Part shown: in pieces, positions 12,376 to 56,958 of the stretch
How positions within the stretch are numbered: position 1 is the stretch's first letter
Layout of the letters: the number at the start of each line of letters is the position of its first letter
IMG/VR virus record: IMGVR_UViG_3300044981_000315
Coordinates: 1,588-65,587 of that record
Source of the DNA: a virus
Lineage: Duplodnaviria; Caudoviricetes
DNA length: 64,000 nucleotides
Reading direction: 5' to 3' (one strand)
Position numbers and translations under genes: made by a program
The notes under the pieces: generated by a model
Databases searched by the model: none
Told to the model about the DNA's origin: nothing
What the model saw: the letters and a program-made list of their open reading frames with translations, nothing else

Positions 12376-13173
12376 ATGTCTCTAAAACTTTTACAGCCAG
12401 GTACAGAACCCCTTGGCCAATTTGATGTTCGTGATGCCGAACTAACCTCCTTTAAGGGTGGCGAAGTTTGTGCTTTTGCTGCTGTTCCAACCAACACTCA
12501 ACCAGGCGTTACTACCGCTGGTCTAGACCAAGCCGCTTATGATGTATTCGACGGTTATGTTCAAGAAACTGCCGGCATCTATATGCGTCCAGCCGTTTCT
12601 AAGAACTGGGTTGCTTCCAACTCCGCTCTTCCAGCTGTTCAATTTCCAAACTATACTTCTCTAGCTGCTGCTACTCGTCCAGTCTTCTTGGCTGACGATG
12701 GTATCTTAGGATACGGTACTCTATTCGGCGCTGTCGTCGGTGGAACTGTCGGTCAACAAGTAAACGGTCCTAACACCTACACTGGTGCCATCCTCGGACC
12801 TAACACTGCTACTGGCTCTGGCAAGATGACTTTGTGGGATAAGCCAGGTCTTTACGCCGTCTCTTTGGACGCCGTGGATACCACTGCTTCTACTGGTCTA
12901 GTACCAACTAACCTCACCTTAACTGTCGGAACTCAACTGTCCTTCACTTCTGGATCTTTCGGTCTCGGTGGTGGTTTGTTAACCCCAGTCGGTGGAAACC
13001 CAGCCCTTGCAACCTATGTTGTAGGAACTTTCATTGAGTTCAACACCAACGGTTCTTTGGTAACTACTCCTAATTACTTGGTTGCCGCTCTCAACAGCCC
13101 ATCCGGTAACGTTAGCTCTGTAACCAACAGAAACTTCCAGTTCGCAACTATCGCTTTCAGACCATTCGTCTAA
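12376..13173 (+). CDS. Major head decoration/cement protein
   Basis: Directly upstream of the MCP; AAGGA RBS; strongly biased codon usage like the MCP; followed by a terminator. Confidence 0.6.
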   Translation: MSLKLLQPGTEPLGQFDVRDAELTSFKGGEVCAFAAVPTNTQPGVTTAGLDQAAYDVFDGYVQETAGIYMRPAVSKNWVASNSALPAVQFPNYTSLAAATRPVFLADDGILGYGTLFGAVVGGTVGQQVNGPNTYTGAILGPNTATGSGKMTLWDKPGLYAVSLDAVDTTASTGLVPTNLTLTVGTQLSFTSGSFGLGGGLLTPVGGNPALATYVVGTFIEFNTNGSLVTTPNYLVAALNSPSGNVSSVTNRNFQFATIAFRPFV

Positions 13174-13196
13174 TTAGCTGACTAGTTAAAAATATT

Positions 13197-13232
13197 AAAC
13201 GACCTATCAGAAACGGTAGGTCGTTTTCTTTT
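13197..13232 (+). terminator. Intrinsic terminator between the decoration gene and the MCP
   Basis: aaacgacctatc-agaaac-ggtaggtcgttt stem-loop followed by a T-rich tract. Confidence 0.8.
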
Positions 13233-13339
13233 GTGTTTTTATTTTTCAATTATGGGAATAATTTGTTATTCAATTAACGCGCTTTTGCGTGGCTGGTCTG
13301 ATGACTGGCAAATAATTCCTATAATAAGTGGAGACACTG

Positions 13340-14353: not shown

Positions 14354-14391
14354 TCAATAATATCAAGTAGTTAGATAACGAAATAAATATT

Positions 14392-14426: not shown

Positions 14427-14466
14427 GTTATATAGCAGGTGTATATGCATAATCAGGGATATAATT

Positions 14467-17943: not shown

Positions 17944-18627
17944 ATGGATGTCTTTGCTCCAGGTCGTAATGAATGTGGGATGTTCATTGTCAGGAACATT
18001 TCGCCCCAAAAAAAGACCATTAACATTTTTCAATACCCCATCAATTTAGGTTATACTAGAGATTTGCTTCAGATTCCTGGTGTTTCCGAAGGTGATATTA
18101 AATCAGCTTTGATGAAGGGTGAAATACGACATAAGTTCAAGGTCGGCGATATTCAATTAGTTTTCAGCAATATTGATTTATTACAATTTAATGATTGTGG
18201 CATTCAATATCTAGAAGGTTATGGATTTACTACTGGTGTTCAAGTAGGATTCGATCAACTTGACGGTTATGTACAGAACTTAATCACTCAAGGTGGCGGT
18301 GGTGGTCTTACTCCCGATGAACACGAAACGCTTCGACAACTCATTCACTTTATTGATGAGGGTCCAGGACATGGTTTTGCTGCCACTGCTTATAAGGTAA
18401 TTTTGCCTACTGGGAATCCATTTCCTACTAGTATGACTTGGTATTTAGATGCCGGACTAACTATTAAATTAGTGGATAAATTAATTACCTACAATGCCAT
18501 GAAGTTCCCAACTATTCTCGAATGGAGAATGTATGATACCGATGGTGTCACCATTATTCATACCGTTACCGATACCATTACCTATAGTTCCGCATTTGAG
18601 TCTACTCGAACGCGTATGGTGACGTAA
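17944..18627 (+). CDS. Virion structural protein
   Basis: First gene of the fibre/appendage cluster; Gly linker; one DGY. Confidence 0.55.
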   Translation: MDVFAPGRNECGMFIVRNISPQKKTINIFQYPINLGYTRDLLQIPGVSEGDIKSALMKGEIRHKFKVGDIQLVFSNIDLLQFNDCGIQYLEGYGFTTGVQVGFDQLDGYVQNLITQGGGGGLTPDEHETLRQLIHFIDEGPGHGFAATAYKVILPTGNPFPTSMTWYLDAGLTIKLVDKLITYNAMKFPTILEWRMYDTDGVTIIHTVTDTITYSSAFESTRTRMVT

Positions 18628-20306
18628 TGTCTAATGAGTCGCCTGCGGCAATTATTTTTGATGAGTTAGGTAATCCAGTTGGTGTTACTAATGCGGATGA
18701 TGGATATTATCGCCTTCAAGTAGATTCTACTACTGTAAAAATTATTCCTACTGTTTCAGTTGCAAACTCCACCACCACACCTTTAGGAGCTGGTGCTACT
18801 TTTAGCGGATCTTCTGAAGATGTTTCTGGTTTCGTTTCTGCCGATATTACTGTTTTATCTGATGTAGCTAGTGCCGATGGTGGATTACTTTTTGAATGGT
18901 CTCAAGATAACATTACTTTTGATTATTCAGAATCGTTTACTATTTTAGCTGGTGTTGGGTCCTTTTATTCTTTATCTGCTAGAGCCAAGTATTTTAGATT
19001 AAGTTATACCAATGGTGCCGCCCCCCAAACTAGTTTTGCTTTATCCACCGTTTATTATCCAATAGATAGATCTATTTTTATTCAAAATCTAGATACCGAT
19101 ATTCCTGCCCAAAAAGCAGTAGAAGTAGTTAGATCAGTATTATCCGCCCAAAAAACAGGTGGAGTTAGTAATAATTACACCAACTTGCAAGCTACTACTG
19201 GTGGTGTTTTAAGAGTTTCTGTAGATACTACAACGGTTCCAGCACTTGGACCAGCTGCGGTGGTACAGCAAGCTAGTATTGGCCCCACTATTGGAACCTC
19301 TTTTTCTCAAACTGTTGCCGATACGGTGTTGGGTAATGCACTTATTGTTTTAGTTATGCAGGGTCAGGGATCTGCAGGCGCTACCTATAATTTTTTTGAT
19401 TCTCAAGGTAATTTATATGCTCAAAATGGTTCAGTTGAAACTCCAGGAGTAGGGCAAATTGATTTATGGTCTACTATCACACAAAATGGTCCCTGTACCG
19501 TTACAGCTGATAATTTCAGTTCAGTTTCGACCGTGGTACTACAGTGTTATGAAGTATCTGGATTGCTTAGTTCAGCACATATTTTTGATCAAATTAGCAC
19601 TAATACGGGAGTAGGTACTTCACTTTCGGCGGGCTCAGTTACGACAAATTATGATGGAGAGTTTTGTATTGCCGCTTTTGCTACTTCTGGCTCCTCTACC
19701 ATTACGGCTGGAGCAGGCTGGACTCAAGATTTGAGTGTGATTGATTTTGGAAGTGAATCTCAAACCCAAAGTGTTGGTGGCATTTTATCTGGAACTGCCA
19801 CGGCAACGCCTTCTGTTCCTTATGTTGGTTTGTTAGCTACTTTTTTTCCAGCTCTTACCTCTAGACCTCTCGTAACCAATTCCAGCGGTCAACTGATAAC
19901 ATTAACAGAAATTACAGATGGTTATGGTAATGGACCGGTTGCAGTTGCGCCACCATTCACATCCGCCACTGCGGCTCAACCAGCTTTGGTTGTTGCTTTT
20001 TCTCCCAATACTCCTCTTACCGTTACTGAAGCCCGTCCTTCTGTCAATACTACTCATAGTGTCGCAGCATCTCTGACCAACGTATCCCTTTTATCATCTA
20101 ATAGCATTAGGCTGGGAGCCACCCTTTATAATGACTCTTCCTCTGTTCTATATGTTAAGTTAGGAACTTTAGCTAGTTTAACTGATTTTACTATTCGACT
20201 ATTTCCATTTTGTTATTATGAGATACCATATGGGTATGTAGGCGAGATTGATGGATTTTGGACACGGGCAACGGGCTTTGCCCGTGTTGGAGAACTAACA
20301 CTTTAA
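18627..20306 (+). CDS. Fibre/appendage structural protein (MSxESP family)
   Basis: S/T/G/A-rich beta protein; N-terminus MSNESPAAIIFD paralogous to 20365 and 21993; C-terminal domain shared with 20365. Confidence 0.6.
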   Translation: MSNESPAAIIFDELGNPVGVTNADDGYYRLQVDSTTVKIIPTVSVANSTTTPLGAGATFSGSSEDVSGFVSADITVLSDVASADGGLLFEWSQDNITFDYSESFTILAGVGSFYSLSARAKYFRLSYTNGAAPQTSFALSTVYYPIDRSIFIQNLDTDIPAQKAVEVVRSVLSAQKTGGVSNNYTNLQATTGGVLRVSVDTTTVPALGPAAVVQQASIGPTIGTSFSQTVADTVLGNALIVLVMQGQGSAGATYNFFDSQGNLYAQNGSVETPGVGQIDLWSTITQNGPCTVTADNFSSVSTVVLQCYEVSGLLSSAHIFDQISTNTGVGTSLSAGSVTTNYDGEFCIAAFATSGSSTITAGAGWTQDLSVIDFGSESQTQSVGGILSGTATATPSVPYVGLLATFFPALTSRPLVTNSSGQLITLTEITDGYGNGPVAVAPPFTSATAAQPALVVAFSPNTPLTVTEARPSVNTTHSVAASLTNVSLLSSNSIRLGATLYNDSSSVLYVKLGTLASLTDFTIRLFPFCYYEIPYGYVGEIDGFWTRATGFARVGELTL

Positions 20307-25623: not shown

Positions 25624-26094
25624 ATGAGTTTAATTCAAGACCCGACTACCAGTACTGCTGCCAATGTAATGTCGCCGAACCAGGTAGTTACAGATGGATA
25701 TGCAGCCTTAGTTGTCACCATTTCTCCTAATAGCCCTACTACTACCATTTCGTCCGCTACGACGATTTTTAGGCTATTATCAGCTGCAACAACCAATGCA
25801 ACTAGCATTAAAGCTTCTACTGGTGTTTTGTATGGATGGTCTATCCAAAATACTAACGCCTCGCAAAGATATATTAAATTATATAATAAAGCCTCTGCTC
25901 CTGCGGTTGGAACAGATACGCCGGTAATGACTTTGCTTATTCCTGGTGCTTCTGCTGGTGCTGGTAATAACTTAGCAGGGATAGCTATCAATTTTAGTAC
26001 CGGAATTGCGTTAGCCACTACGGTTAATCCAACAGATTCTGATACCACAGCAGTGGCTCTAGACGACTTAATTATTAATCTGTTTTACATCTAA
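25624..26094 (+). CDS. Small fibre-associated structural protein
   Basis: MSLIQDPTTSTAANV..LVVTISPNSP N-terminus shared with 23329. Confidence 0.55.
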   Translation: MSLIQDPTTSTAANVMSPNQVVTDGYAALVVTISPNSPTTTISSATTIFRLLSAATTNATSIKASTGVLYGWSIQNTNASQRYIKLYNKASAPAVGTDTPVMTLLIPGASAGAGNNLAGIAINFSTGIALATTVNPTDSDTTAVALDDLIINLFYI

Positions 26095-31918: not shown

Positions 31919-32020
31919 TTTGCCCCAAAAGTCCCTATTATCTATATATCCATCGGCACTCGTATCGTTAGTTATATGCAAAATTATTGGGCTGCCAATG
32001 CCATAATTCTGTATATAGGC

Positions 32021-46088: not shown

Positions 46089-49000
46089 ATGAGCAACTAC
46101 CCCACTGCATTAGATACGGATGTTACGCTAACTCCAGTTAATGACAATTTGTCTCAAATTGGTGATATGGCGATCAACCAACTTCGTGACGCAGTATTTG
46201 CTATAGAGCAATATGTTGGTACCAATCCTAATGGTGTTAGCATTGAGTCCAGGTTAGGGCTCTTGGTCAATCAAGAGGGTATGATTAATTCTTCAGTTAT
46301 TACCTCTTTGGGTTTAGTGACGCTGCCCATTACGCAAGACCAAATTGCCGACAACGCTGGTATTCCAGAATCCAAATTACAGTTAAACTTTCCAACTCTT
46401 ACTTTGTATAACTACATCAGAGATTTATCTAAAGATGTTAATTTGGCTTTGGGTTGGATCGCCGTAACTGGCTCCAAATTGGAACCGCATTTAATTGGTG
46501 CTATCTATCGTCACCAAATGTCAGATATTGATGTGAGTGAAAACCCTGCACAGTATTTGGATAACGTTTTCCGTACCCAACGCAATAATACTAATTCTTA
46601 TACTTTAGTTAATGATATCAACAACGAACTATTGGCTCATCAATGGGCAGATGGTTCCCCCTTTGGTACCCTACAAAATATCACGACTAATGATGGTTCC
46701 ACGTATCCATCTTACTACTCTCATGTAGCTAGTTCCATTTTTCTGGATACCAGCAGCTTTGTTACTATCTCGCAGACTGCCGATGACTTGCAGTTGTTTG
46801 CTGATTTTATTGATCACTCCAGCATTTTCTTGTTGGGTACTAGAATACAAAACTTGTATGCTAACGGCATTTCTAGAGTTTCCACTTCTTCTAGTTTATT
46901 GATTGATGGTTATGGTCAATCCATAGTTCCGTCTACTCCAGTCATTACTTATTTGCTAGGACAGTTCGGTAATAGTAGTTCCCCGATGGATAATATCAAT
47001 TTTGGTGATGATATCGTGCAATTTATGCCGACCAACACCTCTAATAATGTTTTTGCTTCACAGTTTGCTGCCGTTAATGTGGGAGATATTATCTATGTTA
47101 ATTATGGCACGGTAGAAGTTGGTTTTATTATTCAAGAGAAAAGATACAACCAAAATGGTGGTAATGCCGTTTATACTATCCGTATCAATGGCAAGAATTT
47201 AGCTTTTAATTCTACTACTGCTACCGCTTATATTGATCGCTCCCTCATCAACACCAATAAATATGGCGTGTTGGCGATGGCTCCTGCATTTATTCCAGGT
47301 GTTCCTCTTGGCGAACCTAGTCTCATCATTGGTAATCCTCGTGGTGCTCAGGCCCTAGGTAATGGTTTTGATGCTAGCCAGTTAAATAGCACTCATTACC
47401 TGCTATATTTAGGTTTATATCCTGATGGTATTCCTGCTGATGGTTATTCTATTTTACCAGCCATTGATATAACAGGTAATGCTGGTGCCACTCCAGGATC
47501 TTATACTTTGGATAGTGTAGTACAGACAGCCAATTTAGCTTTTAGACAACCCGGTTTTAACTATCGATTTATTGCGTTTGAGTATCAGGGTAATTTTGGT
47601 ATCATGCTTGCCGACCCATACAACAACGCTTCTTTCTCCATTTTCAATGGCGTAGTTAATAGTGTTGGAGGTTATGATCCTACTGCTACTGCTATTGCTT
47701 TTCCCAACAACGTGGTAGATGTTTTTACCGATGGATATGCTGCCGCCGTAGATCCTTTGGGATTTGGATTGGGTGGTGCTAATATCGCTAGCCCTCCATA
47801 TCAATCTTCTTACACCGTAGGATCAGCCTCTCTACCCACTCAATTATTTGTGCCACTCAAGAGAAATAACTATTACGTTAACGGTGTAGAAAAAGAGGAA
47901 ATGGCTCCAGACGGATATCAAGTTACCGACACTTATGGTGATGGATACTGGGTAGCTACGGTAGACGGTTATTATATTAATCCAGGCGTTAGTGTAGAAA
48001 AAACTTATAGTATTACATATGATTTATCTGCTACAGGACTAGAAGTAGGTAAAACCATCGTAGTGCAATCTTTGGGAGGAGATGGAACTTTTCCATTAGA
48101 TTTTGGTCGATTCATTATTAGTGCCGTTAATTTTGGTTGCTGTCCCAATGCTAGCACCACTATCACGGTGTACGATTCTGTTCAGGGTATTGGTTTTTCA
48201 CCAGATAGTACGTCCGGAACCAATACTATTACAAGTGGAAAAGTAGCTATTTATTTTAGTTCCGATTCTGTCTCATTTAATGCGGAGTCAGCTACCGATT
48301 TTAGTGCAGTTAATTTCCCATTCAAGAGACATTTTGAGGTATACATCGATCAAAATGCTCATACTTTCACTCATGAGAGAGGAAGGATGAATGTCTCTGG
48401 ATCTAATCAGCTCATTAATCCTCCATCAGTGGGTGGTATAACTTTAGCTAGCACCCCAAGTCTTTCCTATTTTGACCTAGTAGCCATCTCTCCTAAATTG
48501 CGTGGCTATCCATTTGGTAATGGTGTAACTAAAATTACACTTAATATACTTAGTTACAACAGTGTTACTGGTGTATATTCTGGATATTTATGCTCCAGTT
48601 TAGGCAATAATTTGGGACCACTCACTGTTGGTAAGCAGGGAGAGATAACTAGGTTCTATGATGAGACTAATATTGACTACATCGATATTAATCTAAACTC
48701 TACTGTTGCTATTAGTTCTTTTGCTAACCAGCAAATTGATATCCAATTGTTCCCAACTTTGGCACTAGACGAACAGATTATGATTTTGGGAAGTTGCCAG
48801 TTAAACGATACGAACCAACAACTAACTTATCTGACCGATAGACGACAGTTTGGTAATGTTAGCGAGGCACAACTAACTACTTCTGCTCTAGATTATATTG
48901 CAGCTCCTACTCGACTTCTCCAAGAGAATGGCATTGTCAGGGGCTTTGATGTAGTTTCTTCGCCTACAGGTGCCGCACCTTTTTCCAGCGAAATAGTAAT

Positions 49001-51251
49001 GAGTGGTGGTGTAGCGGTTGTTAATGGCAATATCGTTCAAGTCAACAATAGAACCATCAATGTTCCGGTAGTGTATGAAGTAATTGGCGCATCACACACC
49101 ATCAACAATACTATTACCTGGTTTATTTGCATCAATCAAGATGGAGAATATGAGTTTATCGCTTGTACGGATTTCAATCCAAATAGTGCGCCCATTTATT
49201 TGGACAACGGTTTGGATGAAAATAGAATTTTCTATGTAGCCAACCCTAACAACAGCCTGAGCAACTATTATCCAGTTCGCGCTACTTATTTAGCCGATTT
49301 AGTTGAGAATCAAAAAGATGTAGTGTTGGTAGGTATGATTACCTCTACCGTTACTTTACAAGACAGCGTCTATGCTATTACTATCGCCACCCCTACTGTT
49401 GATATTGATGCTCGCCGATTTGTAGCCAATGGTTATGGCGGTTTAACCGCTCCATTTGTCTTAGGTCCACAAGGCAGTTTCCGAAACTTTACTTCTTTAA
49501 CCAACTGGTTAACTCAACTAGCTAATAGTAACTCTACTGTTGATGGATATAATGACGTTGGACAAACTATCAAAGTGGTGGGCAACACCACAGTTTCCTC
49601 TACCTATACTTTGGATTATTTAAGTCAGGTAACTTTTGAAGGCATGGGTGGAAGCATCACTATCACTAACGATATTGGTTTTGCGTTAGGTAGCAATGTT
49701 GCCTTCAAAAACGTGACGGTTGATTATCTATATGATCCAGTAGTTAATAGCGATCCTGATTATTCAGATGGCTATGTATCTAACCCTCTTAAGGCAGCAT
49801 TTTACGCTTCGGCTGGTGATGGTTATGGTGAACTGGCTATACCTGGGCGACTTCAGAATGTCACCTTCGAGGATTGTTTATTTACTTCTCCGAACCAAAG
49901 TAGATTTGCCTTTCTCGGTTTCAACCTTGTTTCCAGCCTTTCCACTATGCAAAATATCAGAGTAGTGAACAACAAGTTCCAAACCAGTTTTGATGGTGAT
50001 GATAGACGAGCCGTTATCACTTTCGTTGGACCGACTGTTCAATCGCTTCCAACCGTGGATGCTCCTAATGGTCCGCTTCTCAACAATTGTTTAATTGATA
50101 ATAACTTGTGTAATAAGAATCAGCTTATCTTGATTAGTTCGCCATATGTTAGTGGAACAGGTCCAAGTCCTGTTGTTACGAGTTTTGCTGTCCTCGGTGC
50201 TTCTACCGTTACTAATACGGGACCCACTGTTGTTACTGGTGATGTTGGCGTTTCTCCTGGAACTTCTATTACCGGTTTCCCTCCTGGTACTGCCACAGGT
50301 GGTACTCATTCTAATGATTCTGATGCTATCGCTGCTGCGGTAACTCTTAATGCCGCATATTTGGCTGCTCAAGCACCGCAAGGTGGCACGCTTATCGTAG
50401 CTGGTACCTATGCTAATGGTGCCGTCATAACTCCAGGCGTTTATTTCGCTACTAGCTCCCTTAACTTAACTGGTGGTACTGTTACCTTGAATGGTGCAGG
50501 TAATTATACTTTCCAAATTGCTTCTACGCTAGTAACAGCCTCCAATACTATTATTGCTTTAACTAATGGTGCTAATGCCGCCAATGTAACATGGGCAGTG
50601 GGTAGCTCAGCCACCCTTGGTACCGGTACTGTCTTTAATGGTAGTATTTTGGCTCTAGTTTCTATTACTGATAATGGTGGTTCAACTGTTAATGGTCAAT
50701 TATTTGCATCAACTGCCGCTGTTACTCTTAATGATACAACTGTTACCATCCCAGGTGCGCCTGCAGCAATAACGCCAGTGTCAGAACTAATAGCTGCTAG
50801 CAACCTTAAGATTGTAGGCAACACTTGTGGCGCCATCAACGTCCTGGTCAAACGAAATATTACGTCTCAACTTCTCGATGATGTCTATAATTTTATGCAG
50901 GCATCAGGTACCATTATCTCTGGCAATACTTGTCCATTTATTTACTCAGGATATGCTAATGGAAATATCTGTGATGGCGCTGGTAATAGACCGTTTATGA
51001 ATGGCATCTTGCCAGCTAGCGCAACTCCACCCATTTATACAGGATACATGTTAATTTCTAACAATGTATGTTCTTACATTCAGACGGGACGCCAGGTTTC
51101 CTATGAAGATCCCTTTGAAGGAACCTCTCCGTTGATTATAGTCAACAATCAACTACAAGCCTATCCCAATATCAATTATTTGACACCTTACTATGATGGT
51201 CAAGCTGTGCAACTAATTGCTATTCTGGTGGACGAGGTATCGGTGATATAA
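46089..51251 (+). CDS. Large neck/collar structural protein with a beta-helix C-terminus and an inserted DUF3494 domain
   Basis: MSNYPTALD N-terminus; right-handed beta-helix-like repeats (IDNNLC, IVGNTC, ISGNTC, ISNNVC); nine DGY motifs. Confidence 0.65.
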   Translation: MSNYPTALDTDVTLTPVNDNLSQIGDMAINQLRDAVFAIEQYVGTNPNGVSIESRLGLLVNQEGMINSSVITSLGLVTLPITQDQIADNAGIPESKLQLNFPTLTLYNYIRDLSKDVNLALGWIAVTGSKLEPHLIGAIYRHQMSDIDVSENPAQYLDNVFRTQRNNTNSYTLVNDINNELLAHQWADGSPFGTLQNITTNDGSTYPSYYSHVASSIFLDTSSFVTISQTADDLQLFADFIDHSSIFLLGTRIQNLYANGISRVSTSSSLLIDGYGQSIVPSTPVITYLLGQFGNSSSPMDNINFGDDIVQFMPTNTSNNVFASQFAAVNVGDIIYVNYGTVEVGFIIQEKRYNQNGGNAVYTIRINGKNLAFNSTTATAYIDRSLINTNKYGVLAMAPAFIPGVPLGEPSLIIGNPRGAQALGNGFDASQLNSTHYLLYLGLYPDGIPADGYSILPAIDITGNAGATPGSYTLDSVVQTANLAFRQPGFNYRFIAFEYQGNFGIMLADPYNNASFSIFNGVVNSVGGYDPTATAIAFPNNVVDVFTDGYAAAVDPLGFGLGGANIASPPYQSSYTVGSASLPTQLFVPLKRNNYYVNGVEKEEMAPDGYQVTDTYGDGYWVATVDGYYINPGVSVEKTYSITYDLSATGLEVGKTIVVQSLGGDGTFPLDFGRFIISAVNFGCCPNASTTITVYDSVQGIGFSPDSTSGTNTITSGKVAIYFSSDSVSFNAESATDFSAVNFPFKRHFEVYIDQNAHTFTHERGRMNVSGSNQLINPPSVGGITLASTPSLSYFDLVAISPKLRGYPFGNGVTKITLNILSYNSVTGVYSGYLCSSLGNNLGPLTVGKQGEITRFYDETNIDYIDINLNSTVAISSFANQQIDIQLFPTLALDEQIMILGSCQLNDTNQQLTYLTDRRQFGNVSEAQLTTSALDYIAAPTRLLQENGIVRGFDVVSSPTGAAPFSSEIVMSGGVAVVNGNIVQVNNRTINVPVVYEVIGASHTINNTITWFICINQDGEYEFIACTDFNPNSAPIYLDNGLDENRIFYVANPNNSLSNYYPVRATYLADLVENQKDVVLVGMITSTVTLQDSVYAITIATPTVDIDARRFVANGYGGLTAPFVLGPQGSFRNFTSLTNWLTQLANSNSTVDGYNDVGQTIKVVGNTTVSSTYTLDYLSQVTFEGMGGSITITNDIGFALGSNVAFKNVTVDYLYDPVVNSDPDYSDGYVSNPLKAAFYASAGDGYGELAIPGRLQNVTFEDCLFTSPNQSRFAFLGFNLVSSLSTMQNIRVVNNKFQTSFDGDDRRAVITFVGPTVQSLPTVDAPNGPLLNNCLIDNNLCNKNQLILISSPYVSGTGPSPVVTSFAVLGASTVTNTGPTVVTGDVGVSPGTSITGFPPGTATGGTHSNDSDAIAAAVTLNAAYLAAQAPQGGTLIVAGTYANGAVITPGVYFATSSLNLTGGTVTLNGAGNYTFQIASTLVTASNTIIALTNGANAANVTWAVGSSATLGTGTVFNGSILALVSITDNGGSTVNGQLFASTAAVTLNDTTVTIPGAPAAITPVSELIAASNLKIVGNTCGAINVLVKRNITSQLLDDVYNFMQASGTIISGNTCPFIYSGYANGNICDGAGNRPFMNGILPASATPPIYTGYMLISNNVCSYIQTGRQVSYEDPFEGTSPLIIVNNQLQAYPNINYLTPYYDGQAVQLIAILVDEVSVI
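50181..50753 (+). other. DUF3494 (ice-binding-like) domain inserted in the 1720-aa protein
   Basis: SFAVLGASTVTNTGPTVVTGDVGVSPGTSITGFPPG..AY..TPGVY..FQI..A.NVTWAVGSSATLG..F.GSILA..SIT..VNG.L.A..AVTL. Confidence 0.9.
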
Positions 51252-52540
51252 TGGCTATTTCAACAAACTCAAATATATTGATACAGGGTAATACCGTTGA
51301 TTACGGCACCAACATGGACGCTATCAATGGAAACGGTTATACCAACTGTATTAACTTGAATTTGGATCTTAATCAAGTGGCAGATCCTGAAGCTCAATAT
51401 GCTCAACCTGGTTATGCTAAAATTACTGATAACTTTTTAAGTGGCATACCAGACGCGCCAACCACAAGCGTCCACATCGCTTTAGTAGGTGGCTCTACCA
51501 TAATAACTAATAACACTTTTATAGGTCCCGGCATCCAAAACCAAGGTATCAATATTAAAGCCTATATTACCGTTGATAGCCTTAACGATCAGGTCATTAC
51601 GGACAATATTTTTGATAGTCCAACTGTAGATAGCTTGTTGGCTGGAGTTAATGAGACACTGGTTCTTGGAGTGGGTACTAATAGCTTTACCACCACCTCT
51701 ACTTATCACTCTAACAAAAACCAAACAGGCTATTTGCCAATTAGTAAAACACCTAATCTCATTGATTTTGATTATAAATCAGGGCCAGCAGCAACTACTC
51801 CTATACAAAGTTTTTATAGTTTTGATTCCGATCCCGGTAACACCACGGATGGATATGTTAGATGCAAATATGGCAATTTTACTATCGGTACAAAACCATC
51901 CCTATCAAATCCATTTGACAACATGGTACCACCCTATACTCCACCTCCTCCCGTTAGCACTGGAACGCCCAACTATATAGGTTGTGAAGGAACAGCAATT
52001 CTTTATGGACCTAGTGATACTAGCGTAATTAGTTATACTTTTTCTATTGATGTTAATGAGTATTTACCCAATAATGTCCAAATACTTAATTTTGTTGTAG
52101 GTATAACGGCTGATGGTTACACTCTAGAAACTGGTGTAGCTAATTATCAATTATGGTCTGCTAGTAGCGTATCAGCTGTTCCAGTTGCCCCTCCAACAGC
52201 TTATAACTCTTTCACTATCTCTACTATATTAGCAAACAGTTTAGCGGATGTGAGAAATACTATTGGTGTTCCACCCGCTTCACAAACTACGCCAGTAGTA
52301 GCTTCTGAGCAAACGGCTGGTTTGCAAGTAAAAAATCCAGCTGGCGCTAACCAAGTTACTGCCGCACAACTCAATAGTGCCACTCAATATATATTTTTGG
52401 ACGTATCTGGAGAGCCACAATATTTTGTAACTCCTGGCACTAGAATATCCGTTGTGTATCAAGCAACTACTGCAGTAAGTGGTAATACATCTCCAGTTTA
52501 TATTTATGAGTCGCCACTTATTGTTAAATATCGTTGGTAA
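51251..52540 (+). CDS. Beta-helix-containing structural protein
   Basis: IQGNT, ITDNF, ITNNT and ITDNI repeats; translationally coupled to the previous gene. Confidence 0.55.
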   Translation: MAISTNSNILIQGNTVDYGTNMDAINGNGYTNCINLNLDLNQVADPEAQYAQPGYAKITDNFLSGIPDAPTTSVHIALVGGSTIITNNTFIGPGIQNQGINIKAYITVDSLNDQVITDNIFDSPTVDSLLAGVNETLVLGVGTNSFTTTSTYHSNKNQTGYLPISKTPNLIDFDYKSGPAATTPIQSFYSFDSDPGNTTDGYVRCKYGNFTIGTKPSLSNPFDNMVPPYTPPPPVSTGTPNYIGCEGTAILYGPSDTSVISYTFSIDVNEYLPNNVQILNFVVGITADGYTLETGVANYQLWSASSVSAVPVAPPTAYNSFTISTILANSLADVRNTIGVPPASQTTPVVASEQTAGLQVKNPAGANQVTAAQLNSATQYIFLDVSGEPQYFVTPGTRISVVYQATTAVSGNTSPVYIYESPLIVKYRW

Positions 52541-52560
52541 ATAAATGAGCACCAATATTG

Positions 52561-53406
52561 ATGGTGCTAGGAGAGTGCGTCATTTCATCAAACAACTTCT
52601 TCAAGTCGGACCTTTATGGCATCTATCACATCGTGCAAGCGTCGATGATGGTGTATCCTAAGGAAATGATAATAGACACTTTACGTAACTTTTTTTCCAA
52701 AGATAGCTATTATCATTATTCTAAGGACGTTTATGGTTTCGCCAATACCACTGATCATACCGATTTGCCGCCTGGTGCTGACTTGCCTTATGGTCCGGGC
52801 GCCCATCCTGAACTCAATCCTAACCCAATTCTCCCTACTCGTTTGTTTATTGGAGAAAATTATCGTTACGATAGTATTTACTATCCAGCTATTTTAGTAA
52901 AAAGTGGCGGCTCTACCTACGTACCAATTTCTATTAATAGAAACCAAGGCACCATCTACTATAGCGAAATGATATTGGAAGACGGCTATGGCAACCAAAC
53001 CTTGCTCCGTAGACCTCAATCCTATGTGACTGCCGGTGTATGGGAGGGCTCTATCATTGTAGATGTTTATTCCCGAAGTTTAAGGGCTAGGGATGATTTA
53101 GTGGAATTAGTTGGAATGTGTTTTGCCGAAGTGAGTTTTGATACTTTACATGAAGTGGGCATTATCGTCAAACCTCCAGTGATTGGGGCGCCTACCGAGG
53201 GAGATGATCGAAATGATAAGTTATTTAGGCAAAGTATCACATTAAATATAAGAACTGAATGGCGCAGGGAGATCCCAATTGAGGATTTAATCGATACCAT
53301 TCTTTTTACCGTAACCTTTGGAGGTTTAACGGCAAATAGTCCGGTGGCGGCTAATTTGACTATCGATACTGAGGTTAGTATTATCGATATGCTAATAAAC
53401 ACGTAA
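52561..53406 (+). CDS. Tail terminator/completion protein (start uncertain)
   Basis: YPAILVK..IIVDVYSRSLRARDDLVELV..LFRQSITLNIRTEW; immediately upstream of the sheath. Confidence 0.6.
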   Translation: MVLGECVISSNNFFKSDLYGIYHIVQASMMVYPKEMIIDTLRNFFSKDSYYHYSKDVYGFANTTDHTDLPPGADLPYGPGAHPELNPNPILPTRLFIGENYRYDSIYYPAILVKSGGSTYVPISINRNQGTIYYSEMILEDGYGNQTLLRRPQSYVTAGVWEGSIIVDVYSRSLRARDDLVELVGMCFAEVSFDTLHEVGIIVKPPVIGAPTEGDDRNDKLFRQSITLNIRTEWRREIPIEDLIDTILFTVTFGGLTANSPVAANLTIDTEVSIIDMLINT

Positions 53407-53491: not shown

Positions 53492-53505
53492 AATATTATT
53501 ACATT
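53492..53505 (+). promoter_or_regulatory. Candidate late promoter for the tail sheath gene
   Basis: AATAttattaCATT. Confidence 0.5.
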
Positions 53506-53547
53506 TTAGTAGGCAACCCATCAAACAGAGTGAGATAAGGATTTAAC

Positions 53548-56500
53548 ATGGCGGATATCCAAGGAGCTACAAATGCATTACCAGGCGTCTTTACGCTAGT
53601 TCAGACGCAAGCCGCTGGTGCCGCTATTCCAGGCGGTTCTCGCGTAACTGCTATGATTGGTCAAGGCCAAACCAACGGTACCATCGTGGCTCAGGCTCAA
53701 GGTGGCGGTCTAGACGGTTTAGATCCAACTTATACTTCTACTAGTGGTTCTGACGGTAGGCACTTTCTTATTACTGGTGCCCCTCTTATTCCAAATAGAA
53801 CGACTTTGTTTTTGAACGGTATTCCTTTGGTGGGTATGGAGTCTGTCATTACCGCTACCACTACTTTTAGCAATCAGTTTCAGTATTTGCTAGATCCAGT
53901 TACCGGTGAAATTTTACTACAATCTGCTTATATAGTTAATCAAGGTGGCGCTTTTTATGTGCCACTTTCCACTAACGTAGGTTTGGGAGTTATCAACGGC
54001 TTGACCTTAGTGGATGTTAACGCTCCACCAGAGACTTGGACCGTTCGTTGTATAGCTGTGCAAAGAAACTCTATGAATCAACCTATCGGCGGTACTGCTC
54101 AGTTTATCGCCATCGGTTCTGTTTCTGGTGCTCAAGTAGATGCTAATGGCAACCCAATCATTTGGATGGTAGCTAATGGTTCCGCTCCATCAATTCTATC
54201 TTTTGGTATTTTGGCAGGTTCTGGTATTACTAATACCGGAGCTTCTACAGTTACTGGCGATGTTGGTACCTATCCAACTACCACCGAAACAGGTTTCGGA
54301 ACCCTCACCATTAATGGTACCAACCATATGGGAGACTCGGTAACTCAAGCCGCCAAAACTGCCTTAACTGCTGCCTATAATGCGGCTCAAGCTCTATCTG
54401 GTGCTGTTACCATTCCAACCGACCTTAATGGACAGACTTTAACTCCTGGTGTTTATAGTTCTCTTTCTGGAACTTTTATGAACACTGGAACACTAACCCT
54501 TAATGGTGCTGGTAGCTATACTTTCCAGATGGCCACCACCCTAGTGACTGCTGCCTCCAGTACTGTCGTTTTGACAGGTGGTGCAACTGCTGCTAATATT
54601 ACCTGGGCAGTAGGCAGTTCTGCTACTCTCGGTACCTCTTCTCATCTTGAAGGTAGTATTCTCGCCCTCACTTCTATCACTGCTACTACTGGCGCTACTG
54701 TTAATGGTAGTTTGTTAGCTCAAAACGGCGCTGTGACTTTGGATACCAATACTATTACAGCGACTGCGACTCCATCTACTTCACCATCAGGTACTGTCTC
54801 TAATGGTATTTTGAAATTCAGTATCTCTGAAACGCAAGTGATGAATGTGGTGGTTTCGCCATTCGTACCAGGCGATGCTTTCACCATTGTTGTTAATAGT
54901 GGTGTGTTGCTGAAGAATGATGCCTTAACTGCTACTTATATTCCGGTAGCCAACATTAATGCTCCTACTTTGACTCAGGGTCTTAACCAAGTAGTTACTC
55001 AATTTGGAACTCCTAGTTTAGATAATAGCTTGTCTTTGGGTGCTCAATTGTTCTATGCTAATGGAGCTTCCAGCCTTATTTGTGTACAGGCAGCCCCTCC
55101 ACTTCCACGTAGAACTTTCTTCAACCTATCTCCTTCGGTCAATGCTGCCTCCACTAATGATGATGATTTTATCTTCCCATTGCCAGTGGGCGTGGTACCA
55201 GCTTTTGATGATGATATCTATTTCTTTGTCACCAACAACAGCACCCAGGTAGAAACACAACTTTTACCTAACAAACAAACTTACTATACCCTAGGCACTG
55301 CCGGTAATCCAACTCAAAATCAATTCATTATGAGCAATGCTCCAGCTCCTACTGGTTTCTCCTACTTTTATACCGTCATTCAAAGTTTCGAGACGGTAGT
55401 TAGTGGTTTTGACGGATATATAGCTCCAATCAACTCAGCTCTACCTAACCAGGGCGCCTTTAGTTCTTCGGTTACTTTTGACAATACTTACATCGGTTTA
55501 GAACTTAAAGTCATTGATGCTGTTAACTTCGCCAACATCAATACGTATACGGTAACTAACGTAGTTAATGGTGTCTTGTATGTAACTGGACCCGTACCTC
55601 TTGCTAATTTCACAAACCAGAATCCAACTACTTTCGAGTTGATTGACCCAGTGGATGGCTTACCTGTAACAGGTGGCAGTGGTACTGACGGCGTATTGAC
55701 TATTGCTGGTGCTGGGCTAGGTAACTTAACTAGCACGGCTGTCGATTTCTCCCCTTTTAATAGCAAGCTCAATATCAACGGATACCAGCTTCAAATCAAT
55801 GGATCTGCCAACAATGATGGTCTTTACTATATTGTTGGATTTGACTCCATAACCAATACGTTAACCCTACAAACTACAGTGGTATCCGAACATAATCTTC
55901 GTTATGAGGTTATCAATCCAGCTTTGGAAAGCAACTATATCGTTGTCAACCATAACGTAGTACCAAATGGTTATGGTCTCAGCGTCAGTTTGGTAGATAA
56001 CCGTGATGCTACTTTCTACGATGCTGGATGGATCAATGCCCTAGCTGCTCTAGAAACAGTAGAATGCGATATTTTGGTTCCACTACCAAACCAGACCATT
56101 AGCGTTATTTTCCAGAACTGTGTTAACCACTGTATTGCCATGAGCAACATTGTTAACAAGAAGGAACGCGTATTGTTCATCGGAGCTATCAACGGTTTGA
56201 CTCCAGCCAACTTGACTGGTGCTCAATTAGCCGCAGTAGAAGACCTAGGACCACTAGAAGGTATTCCAGGTTCCAACCCAAGCTTGATTCTACAGGCCAA
56301 CCCACAAGACTTAGCCAACTATTCTGTCGCTGCCGCTTATGGTGATACTTACCGTGTAGTCTACTTCTACCCTGACCAAATCATTGTAGCTGTATCAAGT
56401 GGTAATATCCTTATCGATGGTTTCTACATCGCTGCCGCTGCCGCTGGTTATGAGTCTGCGGATATAATCATACAAAACCCAATTACCAACAAGGTATTTT

Positions 56501-56958
56501 CAGGCTTCACTATCCTAGGTAATAAAACCTTCTCTACTCTAACTTTGGAACAACTAGCTGCTGCCGGAGTCTGTACTCTACAACCAGTAGCCGGAGGCGG
56601 TACTGTCATTTGGGGCATCACTACTTCTCAAAGCGGTTTTCCAGAAGAACAAGAAGTTTCTATCGTCTTTATCCGAGACAGAGTGGCCAAGGTATTAAGA
56701 GCTGCCTTCAAAGGTTTCATTGGCACTCCGCAAGATGTTAATACGGCTGCCGCCCTTAATACGGAAGCTGTGGAAACCCTTAACTCCTTGGTTGGTCAAG
56801 GATTGCTAACTGCTTATACTAACTTGAATGTTTATCAGGACACTGTAGACCCTCGTCAATGGAACATCTCAGTATTGGTTAGCCCAGCTTTCCCAATCAA
56901 CTGGATCTTTATAACCGTTAATGTTGGCAATCTAAATCTTGCTAGCTCTACTGGTTAA
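53548..56958 (+). CDS. Contractile tail sheath protein with inserted domains including DUF3494
   Basis: PGVFT N-terminus; HCIAMS..KKER, LAAAGVCTL, IWGITT, EVSIVFIRD and PAFPINWIFITV sheath C-terminal motifs. Confidence 0.9.
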   Translation: MADIQGATNALPGVFTLVQTQAAGAAIPGGSRVTAMIGQGQTNGTIVAQAQGGGLDGLDPTYTSTSGSDGRHFLITGAPLIPNRTTLFLNGIPLVGMESVITATTTFSNQFQYLLDPVTGEILLQSAYIVNQGGAFYVPLSTNVGLGVINGLTLVDVNAPPETWTVRCIAVQRNSMNQPIGGTAQFIAIGSVSGAQVDANGNPIIWMVANGSAPSILSFGILAGSGITNTGASTVTGDVGTYPTTTETGFGTLTINGTNHMGDSVTQAAKTALTAAYNAAQALSGAVTIPTDLNGQTLTPGVYSSLSGTFMNTGTLTLNGAGSYTFQMATTLVTAASSTVVLTGGATAANITWAVGSSATLGTSSHLEGSILALTSITATTGATVNGSLLAQNGAVTLDTNTITATATPSTSPSGTVSNGILKFSISETQVMNVVVSPFVPGDAFTIVVNSGVLLKNDALTATYIPVANINAPTLTQGLNQVVTQFGTPSLDNSLSLGAQLFYANGASSLICVQAAPPLPRRTFFNLSPSVNAASTNDDDFIFPLPVGVVPAFDDDIYFFVTNNSTQVETQLLPNKQTYYTLGTAGNPTQNQFIMSNAPAPTGFSYFYTVIQSFETVVSGFDGYIAPINSALPNQGAFSSSVTFDNTYIGLELKVIDAVNFANINTYTVTNVVNGVLYVTGPVPLANFTNQNPTTFELIDPVDGLPVTGGSGTDGVLTIAGAGLGNLTSTAVDFSPFNSKLNINGYQLQINGSANNDGLYYIVGFDSITNTLTLQTTVVSEHNLRYEVINPALESNYIVVNHNVVPNGYGLSVSLVDNRDATFYDAGWINALAALETVECDILVPLPNQTISVIFQNCVNHCIAMSNIVNKKERVLFIGAINGLTPANLTGAQLAAVEDLGPLEGIPGSNPSLILQANPQDLANYSVAAAYGDTYRVVYFYPDQIIVAVSSGNILIDGFYIAAAAAGYESADIIIQNPITNKVFSGFTILGNKTFSTLTLEQLAAAGVCTLQPVAGGGTVIWGITTSQSGFPEEQEVSIVFIRDRVAKVLRAAFKGFIGTPQDVNTAAALNTEAVETLNSLVGQGLLTAYTNLNVYQDTVDPRQWNISVLVSPAFPINWIFITVNVGNLNLASSTG
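54199..54759 (+). other. DUF3494 (ice-binding-like) domain inserted in the tail sheath
   Basis: SFGILAGSGITNTGASTVTGDVG..AKTALTAAYN..DLNGQTLTPGVY..FQM..AANITWAVGSSATLG..GSILALTSIT..VNGSLLAQNGAVTLDTNTIT. Confidence 0.92.

Follow-up and report, generated by a model that had tools for sequence, protein, structure and literature searches.

Selection for a lineage-specific Asp-Gly-Tyr motif in the virion proteins of a huge-phage clade

The analysis presented here shows that, in a clade of huge phages, selection acts at the peptide level on the tripeptide Asp-Gly-Tyr (DGY) in the late (virion) gene blocks, and that the motif is specific to this lineage. In practice, the motif is a tyrosine that directly follows an Asp-Gly turn. 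The DNA analysed, referred to as the window, is a 64,000-nt stretch of a phage related to Bacillus phage G; the phage is known from metagenomes only, with genomes of ~430-480 kb, and the protein encoded at 42302 (proteins are designated by gene start) served as the marker gene for the clade. No published DGY sequon was found in the literature searched.

The DGY excess and the level of selection

An earlier note on the window had counted 37 DGY in 16 proteins by hand. Translation of 58 long, non-overlapping, mechanically called ORFs (20,209 residues) reproduced this total and the per-protein counts exactly, the only discrepancy being start codons (ORFs 31976 and 52558 here, 32021 and 52561 there). 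Per-protein composition predicts 2.87 occurrences (Poisson p = 4e-28) and a first-order (dipeptide) model predicts 6.7, while in 2000 per-protein residue shuffles the count averaged 3.0 and never exceeded 9. DGY is by a wide margin the most deviant of all tripeptides in the window, the runner-up having p = 1e-5, and the excess is far beyond chance. Tyrosine follows 37 of the 122 DG dipeptides, and aspartate precedes 37 of the 94 GY dipeptides. Genes from 12376 to 56958 contain all 37 motifs, and window ORFs beyond that span (6188 residues, 24 DG) contain none. The protease/scaffold ORF (2-3226) has nine DG, none followed by Y, as had been claimed, and all eight peptide strings quoted earlier are present. 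Family matches cover three structural assignments only: the major head protein (13328-14353), the tail sheath and the protease-like ORF at 2-3226, for which the match is weak and N-terminal only.

An artefact or DNA-level signal would have to stem from chance, wrongly called ORFs, a DNA or RNA motif of 9 nt, recent slippage or homologue redundancy. Mechanical ORF calling throughout and the inclusion of homologous proteins in pooled counts leave room for such an origin, but the shuffles fall well short of the observed count and the motif is locked to frame: 37 of 39 plus-strand GAYGGNTAY sites in the window are in frame 0, and only four sites lie on the minus strand. Codons for D, G and Y within 1032 motifs in relatives follow background usage, wobble positions included, and a 10-copy array is built from different codons and different spacers. 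Moreover, DGY still ranks first of all tripeptides once homologue redundancy is removed by counting alignment columns, and the same excess appears at loci retrieved with DGY-free patterns. An origin of this kind has next to no probability and is refuted as far as sequence analysis allows. Codon variation at the motif, and selection on the peptide rather than the DNA, had both been claimed earlier and are borne out by the frame locking and background codon usage. DGY is very probably a real, selected peptide motif.

Confinement to one clade and to virion proteins

Across 80 related loci (1240 non-identical ORFs), 1032 DGY were observed against 74.2 expected, a 13.9x enrichment. The first locus set was enriched 7.6-17.6x in 35 of 35 cases, and of 45 further loci, all retrieved by patterns without DGY, 41 had DGY as their top tripeptide. 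In other phages, enrichment ranges from 0 to 4.8x, and the clade stays far above the D-G-x usage of their structural proteins. A milder excess of 2.6-4.8x occurs in tail proteins of T4, Tunturi_5 and phage G, and in T4 the probability of Y after DG is 0.11 against a Tyr frequency of 0.041. We know of no system of this type in these three phages, and the signal is therefore partly generic to beta-rich virion proteins. The dispersed excess is absent in phage G, LR745208 and Tunturi_5.

None of the three residues is replaceable. In the pooled set, substitutes for Asp (NGY 0.69x, EGY 0.96x), Tyr (DGF 0.99x, DGW 0.91x, DGH 0.73x) and Gly (DAY 0.79x, DSY 1.5x) stay far below the 13.9x of DGY, and permutations reach 0.8-2.5x (GDY, DYG and YGD 0.8-1.4x). 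That Tyr alone serves in the position following DG is in keeping with chemistry at the phenolic hydroxyl. Given this intolerance of substitutes and the confinement to a single lineage, we infer that something specific reads DGY and that the Tyr hydroxyl matters.

The comparison of structural with non-structural genes proposed earlier was made in a complete relative, G001, where the excess is limited to structural bins (72 DGY vs 8.6 expected) and is not found in other bins (8 vs 12.2); the probability of Y after DG is 0.21 in the former and 0.022 in the latter. Among orthologues in five diverged genomes, the motif is present in 37 of 46 for the DGY proteins of the window and in 2 of 108 for its DGY-free proteins. 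Judged from these orthologues, the split between DGY-bearing and DGY-free families is conserved across the five genomes.

DGY proteins and repeated gain of the motif

All DGY-bearing genes of the window lie on the plus strand. The first (12376..13173), directly upstream of the major head protein gene, encodes a 265-aa Gly-rich protein with DGY at residue 59 (nt 12550) and a weak glycine-zipper match under the Pfam cut-off; its orthologues have exactly one DGY in all five diverged genomes. A 227-aa protein (17944..18627) has one at residue 107 (nt 18262), with DGY in three of five orthologues. Two paralogues follow, of 559 aa (18627..20306; residues 25 and 431, nt 18699 and 19917) and 492 aa (20365..21843; residues 62 and 228, nt 20548 and 21046), related also to 21993. 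Small proteins of 156 aa (25624..26094; residue 24, nt 25693), 115 aa (30079..30426; residues 36 and 57, nt 30184 and 30247) and 97 aa (36197..36490; residues 43 and 68, nt 36323 and 36398) carry one or two copies, and the 30079 family has five distinct DGY columns in 32 sequences. Between them lie a 242-aa collagen-like/BclA_C-like fibre protein (30497..31225; residue 82, nt 30740) and a 1396-aa Gly-rich protein (31976..36166) in which a G-x-x-Q-DGY-[VT]-L-T-W unit occurs three times (DGY at residues 67, 429 and 996; nt 32174, 33260 and 34961). The 317-aa protein at 39067..40020 (residue 171, nt 39577) is the most conserved of the block, with ~80% identity to relatives, where the residue-171 column reads DAY, DSY, DGY or DSF; a second column has DGH in the window (residue 129) and DGY in 18 of 23 relatives.

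The 659-aa protein at 42302..44281 has an FN3-like N-terminus, conserved Cys pairs and C-terminal H-x-H motifs, and carries DGY at residues 20, 185, 249, 316 and 357 (nt 42359, 42854, 43046, 43247 and 43370). Site 357 is DGY in 28 of 28 family members, site 316 in 22 and site 20 in 19, and sites 185 and 249 lie within an indel-rich insert; the family has 29 distinct DGY columns in 71 sequences. The 1720-aa protein at 46089..51251 has nine DGY (residues 273, 451, 548, 608, 618, 626, 1152, 1227 and 1244; nt 46905 to 49818), none of them in its ice-binding-like beta-solenoid domain (residues 1368-1553), and its family has 66 distinct columns in 60 sequences. A 429-aa protein (51251..52540; residues 200 and 288, nt 51848 and 52112) precedes a 282-aa protein (52558..53406; residue 142, nt 52981) whose site is DGY in 20 of 22 sequences, with the 20 flanking columns just 35% conserved. 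The last is the 1136-aa tail sheath with inserted domains (53548..56958), where DGY at residue 622 (nt 55411) lies between an ice-binding-like insert (221-404) and the sheath C-terminal domain; sheath orthologues have one or two DGY in five of five genomes.

The 143-aa protein at 38643..39074 has DGY at residues 22, 30 and 33 (nt 38706, 38730 and 38739). Its AlphaFold2 model (mean pLDDT 86) is an Ig V-like beta-sandwich, with V-set Ig domains as best Foldseek matches, and all three motifs fall within the long loop joining strands 13-19 and 39-44. In two models, following the mapping proposed earlier, DGY lies in loops or poorly ordered stretches and not inside regular strands. In 50 distinct sequences of the family, including that of the window, 0 to 10 copies occupy one CDR1-like loop as tandem arrays, (DGY-x0-2)n, and this small domain has 16 distinct DGY columns. 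The C-terminal tail of 38643 is His-rich, with HHHHHH in one homologue. Among 636 adjacent DGY pairs of the pooled set, spacings of 3, 4 and 5 are in excess (35, 32 and 31). DGY flanks are enriched in V, I and L, many sites having beta-branched or hydrophobic neighbours, and hydrophobic residues also make up array spacers such as II, VV and WI.

Repeated acquisition at differing positions of homologous proteins, as claimed earlier, is upheld by column counts and paralogue pairs. DGY occupies 127 distinct alignment columns in ten families, the most of any tripeptide (SSS is second with 96), which amounts to 2.67 columns per expected occurrence compared with 0.21-0.72 for 20 control tripeptides, and each column holds 6.6 sequences compared with ~2 for NGY, DGF and SGY. 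The earlier paralogue alignments were also reproduced. The N-terminal 41 residues of 25624 are 63% identical to 23329, which has TGE opposite DGY; DGYGN of 18627 aligns with DGT-H of 21993; 30497 aligns to three repeats of 31976, with IGY in place of DGY in the second; and the sheath, over residues 115-221, shares 48% identity with residues 173-273 of 42302. The motif has been acquired at many different positions and then retained. The folds involved are different ones, in line with the earlier claim: an Ig V-like sandwich, an FN3-like region, a sheath insertion and, in a relative, Kelch blades. The motif is shown to accumulate in loops and hypervariable inserts.

Candidate functions of the motif

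A rather doubtful reading is that displayed Asp-Gly-Tyr is read but left unmodified, much as RGD-type tripeptides or Tyr-rich antibody loops are. The partner would be either a host-surface ligand or a protein of the phage itself (a chaperone for assembly, or a cement or decoration protein), and array length in the Ig V-like loop would tune avidity. The arrays in the CDR1-like loop of a V-set-like domain, the location of most sites in fast-evolving inserts, and the restriction to virion proteins of the same families across genomes agree with docking of this kind, and a specific partner would fit the strict residue order. However, no reader protein, including a multi-copy decoration protein, was identified, and some sites are invariant in conserved cores rather than variable tips, such as site 357 of 42302. 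Generic aromatic stacking on glycans should accept Trp or Phe, and a generic sticky Tyr/Gly/Asp loop would leave the order free, whereas neither substitution nor permutation is favoured. It is somewhat unlikely, too, that DGY merely represents the beta-hairpin or turn favoured in this lineage and has no external reader, with Asp-Gly making the turn, the Tyr hydroxyl and ring clamping it, and heavy duplication and shuffling of small beta domains spreading it among virion proteins. Loss of DGY at orthologous sites usually keeps DG and changes Y alone (DGQ/H/S/T at site 20 and DGI/L at site 316 of 42302), flanks are rich in V, I and L, a relative's Kelch-repeat DGY takes the usual D-G turn place before an I-Y-x-F-G-G strand, tail proteins of other phages show the milder excess, and the segment shared by 42302 and the sheath documents real domain shuffling. 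Yet a turn should take Asn for Asp and Phe or Trp for Tyr, none of which is enriched, and confinement to a single lineage at five times the level of other phages, back-to-back DGYDGY and arrays of period 4-5 are unexpected. Duplication also leaves unexplained the 16 columns of one 143-aa domain and the alternation of DGY and non-DGY at aligned paralogue positions. Quite improbable is metal binding, in which the Asp carboxylate and Tyr phenolate, joined by a flexible Gly turn, would coordinate for example ferric iron or calcium and so stiffen fibres or load the virion with metal. The His-rich tail of 38643 and the invariant Cys pairs and repeated H-x-H motifs of the 42302 family favour this, and phenolate ligation fits the need for Tyr over Phe; but Glu does not replace Asp, which is unusual in a carboxylate ligand, lone sites have too few ligands for a full coordination sphere, and none of the known metal-site families was matched.

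The leading reading, put forward tentatively as a possibility, is that a glycosylation module encoded by the phage uses DGY as its acceptor motif (sequon) and targets the tyrosine. The module would consist of a GT-B glycosyltransferase resembling GT4, an NDP-sugar 4,6-dehydratase/epimerase, a conserved 330-aa protein and, in most cases, a pair of GT2 enzymes. It follows the giant fibre genes immediately and shares their direction of transcription, and it would O-glycosylate displayed DGY tyrosines in the cytoplasm during assembly. O-glycans linked through Tyr are described on S-layer proteins (PMC2943079), and glycans on mycobacteriophage capsids (PMC12619734; PMC11256854). In G001, the order at 326829-333693, directly after three giant DGY-bearing proteins, is GT4-like enzyme, GT2, Fpg, 330-aa protein, second GT2 and NDP-sugar dehydratase; the GT4, 330-aa protein and dehydratase are kept in five of five genomes compared. 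The search for a co-varying glycosyltransferase proposed earlier found the GT4-like enzyme and dehydratase, placed just past the fibre genes, in 18 of 18 large clade genomes and 0 of 3 outgroups, a co-occurrence that is a single phylogenetic event and not independent replication. Beyond G001, a GT4-like homologue occurs in 17 of 17 other large clade genomes, where by arithmetic it always follows the marker gene at a distance of 41-53 kb, and is absent from phage G, LR745208 and Tunturi_5. Family searches found no glycosyltransferase in the window or its contig, the expected position of the module lying past the contig end. Two complete genomes without a PF00535 GT2 keep DGY enrichments of 4.6x and 5.4x (6.9-7.8x in three with GT2), and the GT2 enzymes are therefore at least dispensable for the signature.

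Other observations bear on the glycosylation reading. At the structural-block border in G001, the module adjoins an Fpg-type DNA glycosylase, a TubZ-like tubulin and a lysozyme, and with this location near Fpg it could equally serve DNA or host-envelope modification. Hydrophobic flanks and array spacers suggest that many sites belong to folded and partly packed structure and not to a free acceptor loop, and at site 316 of 42302 a total of 6 of 28 sequences have I or L for Y, as if the residue served in packing, which counts against a sequon. A promiscuous cytoplasmic writer might impose avoidance of DGY in non-virion proteins; the deficit in the other bins of G001 is not significant, a further point against a sequon. 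Of the other enzymes proposed earlier, no kinase was found, and radical SAM genes, which some of the genomes lack, are located far from the block. Searches for a sulfotransferase and an isoaspartyl methyltransferase found neither, and the tyrosinase search gave no match, its positive control being equally silent. Recognition of DGY by an enzyme, as first put forward, thus has a co-occurring GT4-like/dehydratase module in its favor and remains a lead only.

Finally, the DGY pattern points to an undescribed signal for surface recognition or modification. If the glycosylation reading is true, many different outer virion proteins of these phages would share a common glycan coat.

DGY as a peptide-level signal

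The 58 long ORFs of the window contain 37 copies of the tripeptide Asp-Gly-Tyr (DGY), in 16 proteins, where 2.87 are expected from per-protein composition (p = 4e-28). No other tripeptide deviates as strongly, and the lead of DGY exceeds 20 orders of magnitude. A dipeptide-based expectation gives 6.7 copies, 2000 shuffles gave at most 9, and Tyr is the residue that follows DG in 37 of 122 cases. The proteins and per-protein counts are identical to those of a hand count in an earlier note, and the strings it quoted and the contrasts it drew between paralogues are present in the sequence and align as described.

The signal resides in the peptide, as that note had proposed. On the plus strand, 37 of the 39 matches to GAYGGNTAY are in the coding frame, and the minus strand has 4 matches. 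Codon choice at the Asp, Gly and Tyr positions equals the background of the same proteins (1032 motifs in relatives). Frame, strand and wobble usage rule out a DNA or RNA motif such as a restriction, recombination or regulatory site. Recent slippage is ruled out as the origin of the arrays by ten copies with varied codons and spacers.

In a pooled set of 1240 non-identical ORFs (407,574 aa, the ORFs of relatives having been called mechanically), 1032 DGY were observed against 74.2 expected, an excess of 13.9x. Single-residue variants stand at 0.69x (NGY), 0.96x (EGY), 0.99x (DGF), 0.91x (DGW), 0.73x (DGH), 0.79x (DAY), 1.5x (DSY), 1.3x (DGV) and 1.8x (DGT). Permutations of DGY range from 0.8x to 2.5x; YDG is the highest, partly because tandem DGY creates YDG. 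A plain type I' beta-turn (Asx-Gly) does not account for this pattern, since Asn and Asp are not interchangeable and neither other aromatics nor beta-formers after the turn come near the excess with Tyr. The flanks have a mild preference only, for Val after the motif and Val, Ile or Leu before it, too weak for a longer motif.

Generic use of D-G-x is ruled out as a full explanation by phages outside the clade. T4 has 10 DGY against 2.69 expected in its structural region, 3 of them a motif of Seg endonuclease paralogues, and 1 against 0.94 in its fibres. Tunturi_5 has 5 against 1.95, LR745208 has 0 against 1.52, and Bacillus phage G has 2 against 1.72 in its head region and 14 against 2.2 to 2.92 in its tail cluster. 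These counts reveal that beta-rich virion proteins carry a generic 1-4x excess of DGY; the excess in the clade is about five times that level. Phage G resembles the clade in genome size and in having a tail-gene cluster with a DGY excess. Unlike in the clade, its DGY lies mostly within two longer repeat units of the giant tail proteins gp420-gp431 (L109, 316783-347675), N-G-R-H-T-DGY-W-Y-V-R-G with 6 copies and L-V-DGY-I-V-K-V-G-G-like with 5, both counting variants. The former may resemble cell-wall-binding hairpin repeats. That DGY is a strict, lineage-specific tripeptide selected as a peptide can be considered secure.

Distribution across the clade and within genomes

The window forms the final 64,000 bases of a 65,587-base IMG/VR record with a CheckV completeness of 15%, and its ORFs are dense and mainly on the plus strand (standard code). 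The major head protein (13328-14353) matches PHROG 2522 (E = 7e-77), the tail sheath (53548-56958) has a family match, and 2-3226 has a weak head-protease-like match at its N-terminus. Two LAGLIDADG homing endonucleases and one GIY-YIG enzyme with NUMOD3 (14425-15354, 28495-29175 and 40025-40900) are scattered in the structural block, and their genes occur patchily among relatives. A patatin-like phospholipase (29160-30032) is encoded on the coding strand within the block; a CCA-adding enzyme (15922-17157) and a 2H phosphoesterase with a weaker match to the anti-CBASS protein Acb1 (40956-41519, E = 3e-7) are encoded on the minus strand. At the thresholds used, 29 of 40 window proteins had no family match in PHROGs and 23 of 49 had none in Pfam.

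The nearest named phage is Bacillus phage G (Donellivirus gee), whose major head protein shares 53% identity with that of the window across 83% of the length (E = 5e-94), and the head module is shared with Donellivirus-related huge phages. A comparison of the 58 window proteins with gp420-gp435 of phage G gave no BLASTP match at E <= 1e-3 that would indicate shared tail or fibre proteins. The 659-aa protein at 42302, used as the marker of the clade, had no tblastn match in 50,697 GenBank phage records, and the marker region had no megablast match to GenBank phages. IMG/VR contains about 100 relatives of this protein, the longest of their contigs measuring 481 kb, and the lineage is known from more than 100 metagenomic contigs. 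Based on the head protein and on the confinement of 42302 relatives to IMG/VR, the window is by sequence a member of an uncultured huge-phage clade related to phage G. IMG/VR labels seven of the genomes as proviruses (G001, G004, G005, G009, G012, G015 and G017), and G010 and G014 have direct terminal repeats. The members so labelled are of 210-481 kb, and provirus calls for genomes this large look doubtful.

A first locus search, with two peptide patterns that contain DGY, returned 35 loci, all enriched in DGY by 7.6-17.6x. A second search used alignment-derived patterns without DGY as a guard against ascertainment bias, and DGY was the top tripeptide in 41 of 45 new loci (ratios 3.0 to 24.1), including relatives merely 39-45% identical in the marker protein. 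The equal outcome with DGY-free patterns rules out such bias.

Within genomes the motif is confined to particular regions. The complete 480-kb relative G001 has 80 DGY against 20.8 expected. Nine of its 20-kb bins, the structural ones at 60-100 and 260-400 kb, hold 72 (8.6 expected), whereas the remaining fifteen hold 8 (12.2 expected); the probability that Tyr follows DG is 0.21 in the former and 0.022 in the latter. In the window, G001 and the pooled set alike, DGY is over-represented on the candidate target proteins and not elsewhere, as an acceptor-type motif would be. Among five diverged genomes, DGY occurs in 37 of the 46 orthologues of proteins that have it in the window and in 2 of the 108 orthologues of proteins that lack it there, which makes DGY density a practical marker that sets particle-side proteins apart. 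The capsid protein, 84-95% identical among the five genomes, always has none; all seven families downstream of the sheath fall in the DGY-free group, and six non-structural families have DGY in a single alignment column. Gene position indicates that most DGY proteins are probably virion components.

Individual sites differ in how well they are conserved. In first-set alignments of the marker protein, DGY is present in 28 of 28 sequences at site 357, in 22 at site 316 and in 19 at site 20. Site 142 of the 282-aa protein 52558 is DGY in 20 of 22 sequences with flanks only 35% conserved. In the 317-aa protein 39067, a column that reads DGH in the window is DGY in 18 of 23 relatives, and where the window has DGY the relatives mostly have DAY or DSY. 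Where DGY has been lost, DG tends to persist and Tyr is altered. Redundancy among homologues was handled by counting each alignment column once. DGY remains the top tripeptide by this count, with 127 distinct columns in ten structural families (next, SSS with 96), so redundancy is not the source of the excess. DGY has 2.67 columns per expected occurrence, compared to 0.21-0.72 for twenty control tripeptides, and a mean of 6.6 sequences per column, compared to about 2 for NGY, DGF and SGY. These values indicate, at the level of sequence, that DGY is gained more often and retained longer.

Loops, arrays and domains that carry DGY

Two proteins were modelled, and exposure of DGY was judged from loop position and indel tolerance. 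The 143-aa protein 38643 is predicted to be a seven-strand sandwich (mean pLDDT 86). It has no family match in Pfam or PHROG; its best Foldseek matches are V-set immunoglobulin domains (TCR, antibody V domains, CRTAM and nectin; probability 1.00, target-normalised TM-scores up to 0.59), so the family is probably a V-set-like Ig beta-sandwich. All three DGY of 38643 lie in a 19-residue loop between strands 13-19 and 39-44, which corresponds to the CDR1 position of the matches. Across 50 distinct sequences, family members have 0 to 10 DGY, mostly in the CDR1-like loop and in arrays often of period 3-5; other lineages have DGY at two further positions of the domain too. In the pooled set, 98 of 636 adjacent DGY pairs are spaced 3, 4 or 5 residues apart.

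Ig-like accessory domains are known from phage particles, and antibody loops are rich in Tyr, Gly and Asp. The 38643 family is similar in its predicted V-like fold and in a B-C strand loop that varies in length and has Tyr-rich arrays. Unlike in antibody loops, residue order is strict, and non-Ig proteins are marked too. The 25 C-terminal residues of 38643 include about 10 His, and a distant homologue (L088, 3226-4128) has a run of six His plus many others; these tails suggest metal binding.

The model of the marker protein 42302 is poor (mean pLDDT 60, pTM 0.35) and unfit for site mapping; its five DGY sites fall in an FN3-like domain loop or in low-confidence segments, and Foldseek returned generic FN3 arrays only (query-normalised TM-scores about 0.1). 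Across 27 sequences this protein invariably keeps its Cys pairs near residues 459-476 (C-x-C and C-x-x-C) and, at the C-terminus, three or four H-x-H motifs, an arrangement that recalls the metal-binding tips of fibres. Its residues 173-273 share 48% identity with sheath residues 115-221, and a domain has therefore been shuffled between the two proteins. The sheath also has an inserted ice-binding-like beta-solenoid (PF11999, residues 221-404, E = 2e-47), and a second copy of this domain lies in the 1720-aa protein 46089 (residues 1368-1553, E = 1e-39); both copies lack DGY.

Other DGY proteins are built from repeats. The Gly-rich 1396-aa protein at 31976-36166 has three copies of the unit G-x-x-Q-DGY-[VT]-L-T-W, and a collagen/BclA_C-like protein (30497-31225) has one copy of the related unit PQ-DGY-VLEATS; one aligned repeat has IGY in place of DGY. 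The second DGY-rich region of G001 encodes Kelch-repeat beta-propeller proteins at 74784-75689 (minus strand) and 98306-99553 (plus strand), in one of which four blades have DGY at their D-G turn. That particle proteins display DGY mainly in loops and in variable inserts is considered secure.

A glycosyltransferase module and possible readings of DGY

Three giant DGY-bearing proteins of G001 (311467-326746) are followed immediately, on the same strand, by a module at 326829-335077 (L053, 6829-15077). The order is a 233-aa unannotated protein, a GT4-like glycosyltransferase, a GT2 glycosyltransferase, an Fpg-type DNA glycosylase, a 330-aa protein, a second GT2 and an NDP-sugar 4,6-dehydratase; the series continues with a TubZ/PhuZ-like tubulin and then a GH25 lysozyme. 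G004, G005, G010 and G012 have the same order with a variable Fpg gene, and none of the five genomes compared lacks the GT4-like enzyme, the 330-aa protein or the dehydratase. The 330-aa protein had no sequence match in the PDB (E = 0.83), and its best Atlas score, 0.87, is under the guide of 0.9. All 17 other large clade genomes have a GT4-like homologue, split into two ORFs in G008; by our arithmetic the gene follows the marker gene at a distance of 41-53 kb in 18 of 18. No glycosyltransferase was found in the window or its contig, and the expected GT4-like position is beyond the contig end. Of 18 large genomes, 16 carry GT2 genes. In a 100-kb block, two complete genomes without GT2 have 23 DGY against 4.95 expected and 26 against 4.78 (4.6x and 5.4x), compared to 30 against 4.08, 37 against 5.34 and 38 against 4.86 in three GT2-bearing genomes (6.9-7.8x).

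The earlier note had suggested that glycosyltransferase, radical SAM or kinase genes might co-vary with DGY. The GT4-like gene is present in 18 of 18 clade genomes and has no homologue in the three outgroups phage G, LR745208 and Tunturi_5, a pattern that represents one event on the tree. No kinase (Pkinase) exceeded the cut-off in five complete genomes, and radical SAM genes, present in four of the five, are distant from the block. Neither a sulfotransferase (PF13469) nor an isoaspartyl methyltransferase (PCMT) was found in four complete genomes. Tyrosinase matched none of five, in a search whose positive control was also silent.

Phe, Trp and His do not take the place of Tyr, nor Asn and Glu that of Asp. 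This absolute choice of residues and the restriction to one lineage speak for a specific reader of DGY and for chemistry at the Tyr hydroxyl. Given the conserved sugar-transfer module beside the fibre genes, O-glycosylation is the leading mechanism, although it is less likely than not. A fuller proposal, itself doubtful, is that DGY is a new Tyr-directed sequon. The phage dehydratase would feed the GT4-like enzyme, which would O-glycosylate Tyr residues displayed at Asp-Gly turns in over a dozen outer virion proteins that are unrelated to one another. The outcome would be a programmable glycan coat on the huge phages of the clade, with a density tuned by gain and loss of DGY, for example between 0 and 10 copies in the CDR1-like loop. 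Complex prediction for the GT4-like enzyme and the Ig-like DGY domain encoded alongside it in one genome gave a score of 0.00, which, obtained without controls, is neutral on binding.

The main objections to glycosylation are that the role of the module is ambiguous, as it borders DNA-metabolism genes, that co-occurrence of the GT4-like gene is a single event, that the flanks of DGY are hydrophobic, and that unrelated phages have a milder DGY excess. DGY could instead be a non-covalent docking or ligand motif, or it could be purely a structural turn. The former is unlikely, though little less probable than glycosylation, with the arrays in the CDR1-like loop and the strict residue order on its side; against it, DGW and DGF are not enriched, although Trp and Phe should serve equally well for aromatic stacking on glycans. 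The latter, likewise unlikely, has in its favour the generic excess in beta-rich proteins and the persistence of DG at lost sites; the strict choice of Asp and Tyr is against it. Metal binding, which the His-rich tails suggest for themselves, is very unlikely for DGY, given that Glu does not replace Asp.

Comparable codes exist elsewhere. HMW1C, a GT41 enzyme, glycosylates the large adhesin HMW1 in the cytoplasm at an N-X-S/T sequon with Asn as acceptor. The clade is similar in that a short candidate acceptor motif is repeated on large, beta-rich surface proteins and a candidate transferase gene adjoins genes of putative targets; it differs in the D-G-Y motif, in a candidate GT4-like enzyme of the GT-B fold and in at least 16 different candidate target proteins. 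Prohead proteases cleave motifs common to many head and internal proteins (L/I-x-E in T4, S/A/G-x-E in phiKZ-type phages), each lineage using one phage enzyme. DGY is likewise one short motif on many unrelated virion proteins of one lineage; unlike the protease motifs, it is found in neither the protease nor the head-side proteins, reaches 9 copies in one 1720-aa protein and is conserved in mature-looking domains. In mycobacteriophages, glycosyltransferase genes lie beside structural genes, and the glycans are reported to sit at the C-terminal ends of the capsid and tail tube subunits (PMC12619734, PMC11256854); the 'moraphage' paper treats a different lineage (PMC12619734). The clade is similar in that its transferase genes adjoin and are co-oriented with virion genes, and several proteins would share one coat. 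However, its capsid and putative tube-side proteins lack DGY, and the putative sites are Tyr residues within the chain, always part of one tripeptide. Tyr is an established O-glycan acceptor on Gram-positive S-layer proteins, as beta-Glc-Tyr and beta-Gal-Tyr, with transfer thought to be by an oligosaccharyltransferase during secretion; the review's account of these sites gives few per protein and no consensus (PMC2943079). Unlike S-layer glycosylation, modification of a phage virion would have to be cytoplasmic. The literature searched contained no description of a DGY motif in phages.

The results indicate that simple oligopeptide statistics can expose lineage-specific biology missed by homology searches. 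If an enzyme reads DGY, no Tyr-directed sequon would have been defined before it, nor a modification code spanning the whole virion of a tailed phage; one small domain and a three-gene module would suffice for a direct test, and glyco-engineering could make use of it. If a partner or a host ligand reads DGY, the tripeptide would be an assembly or adhesion code of a kind with RGD.
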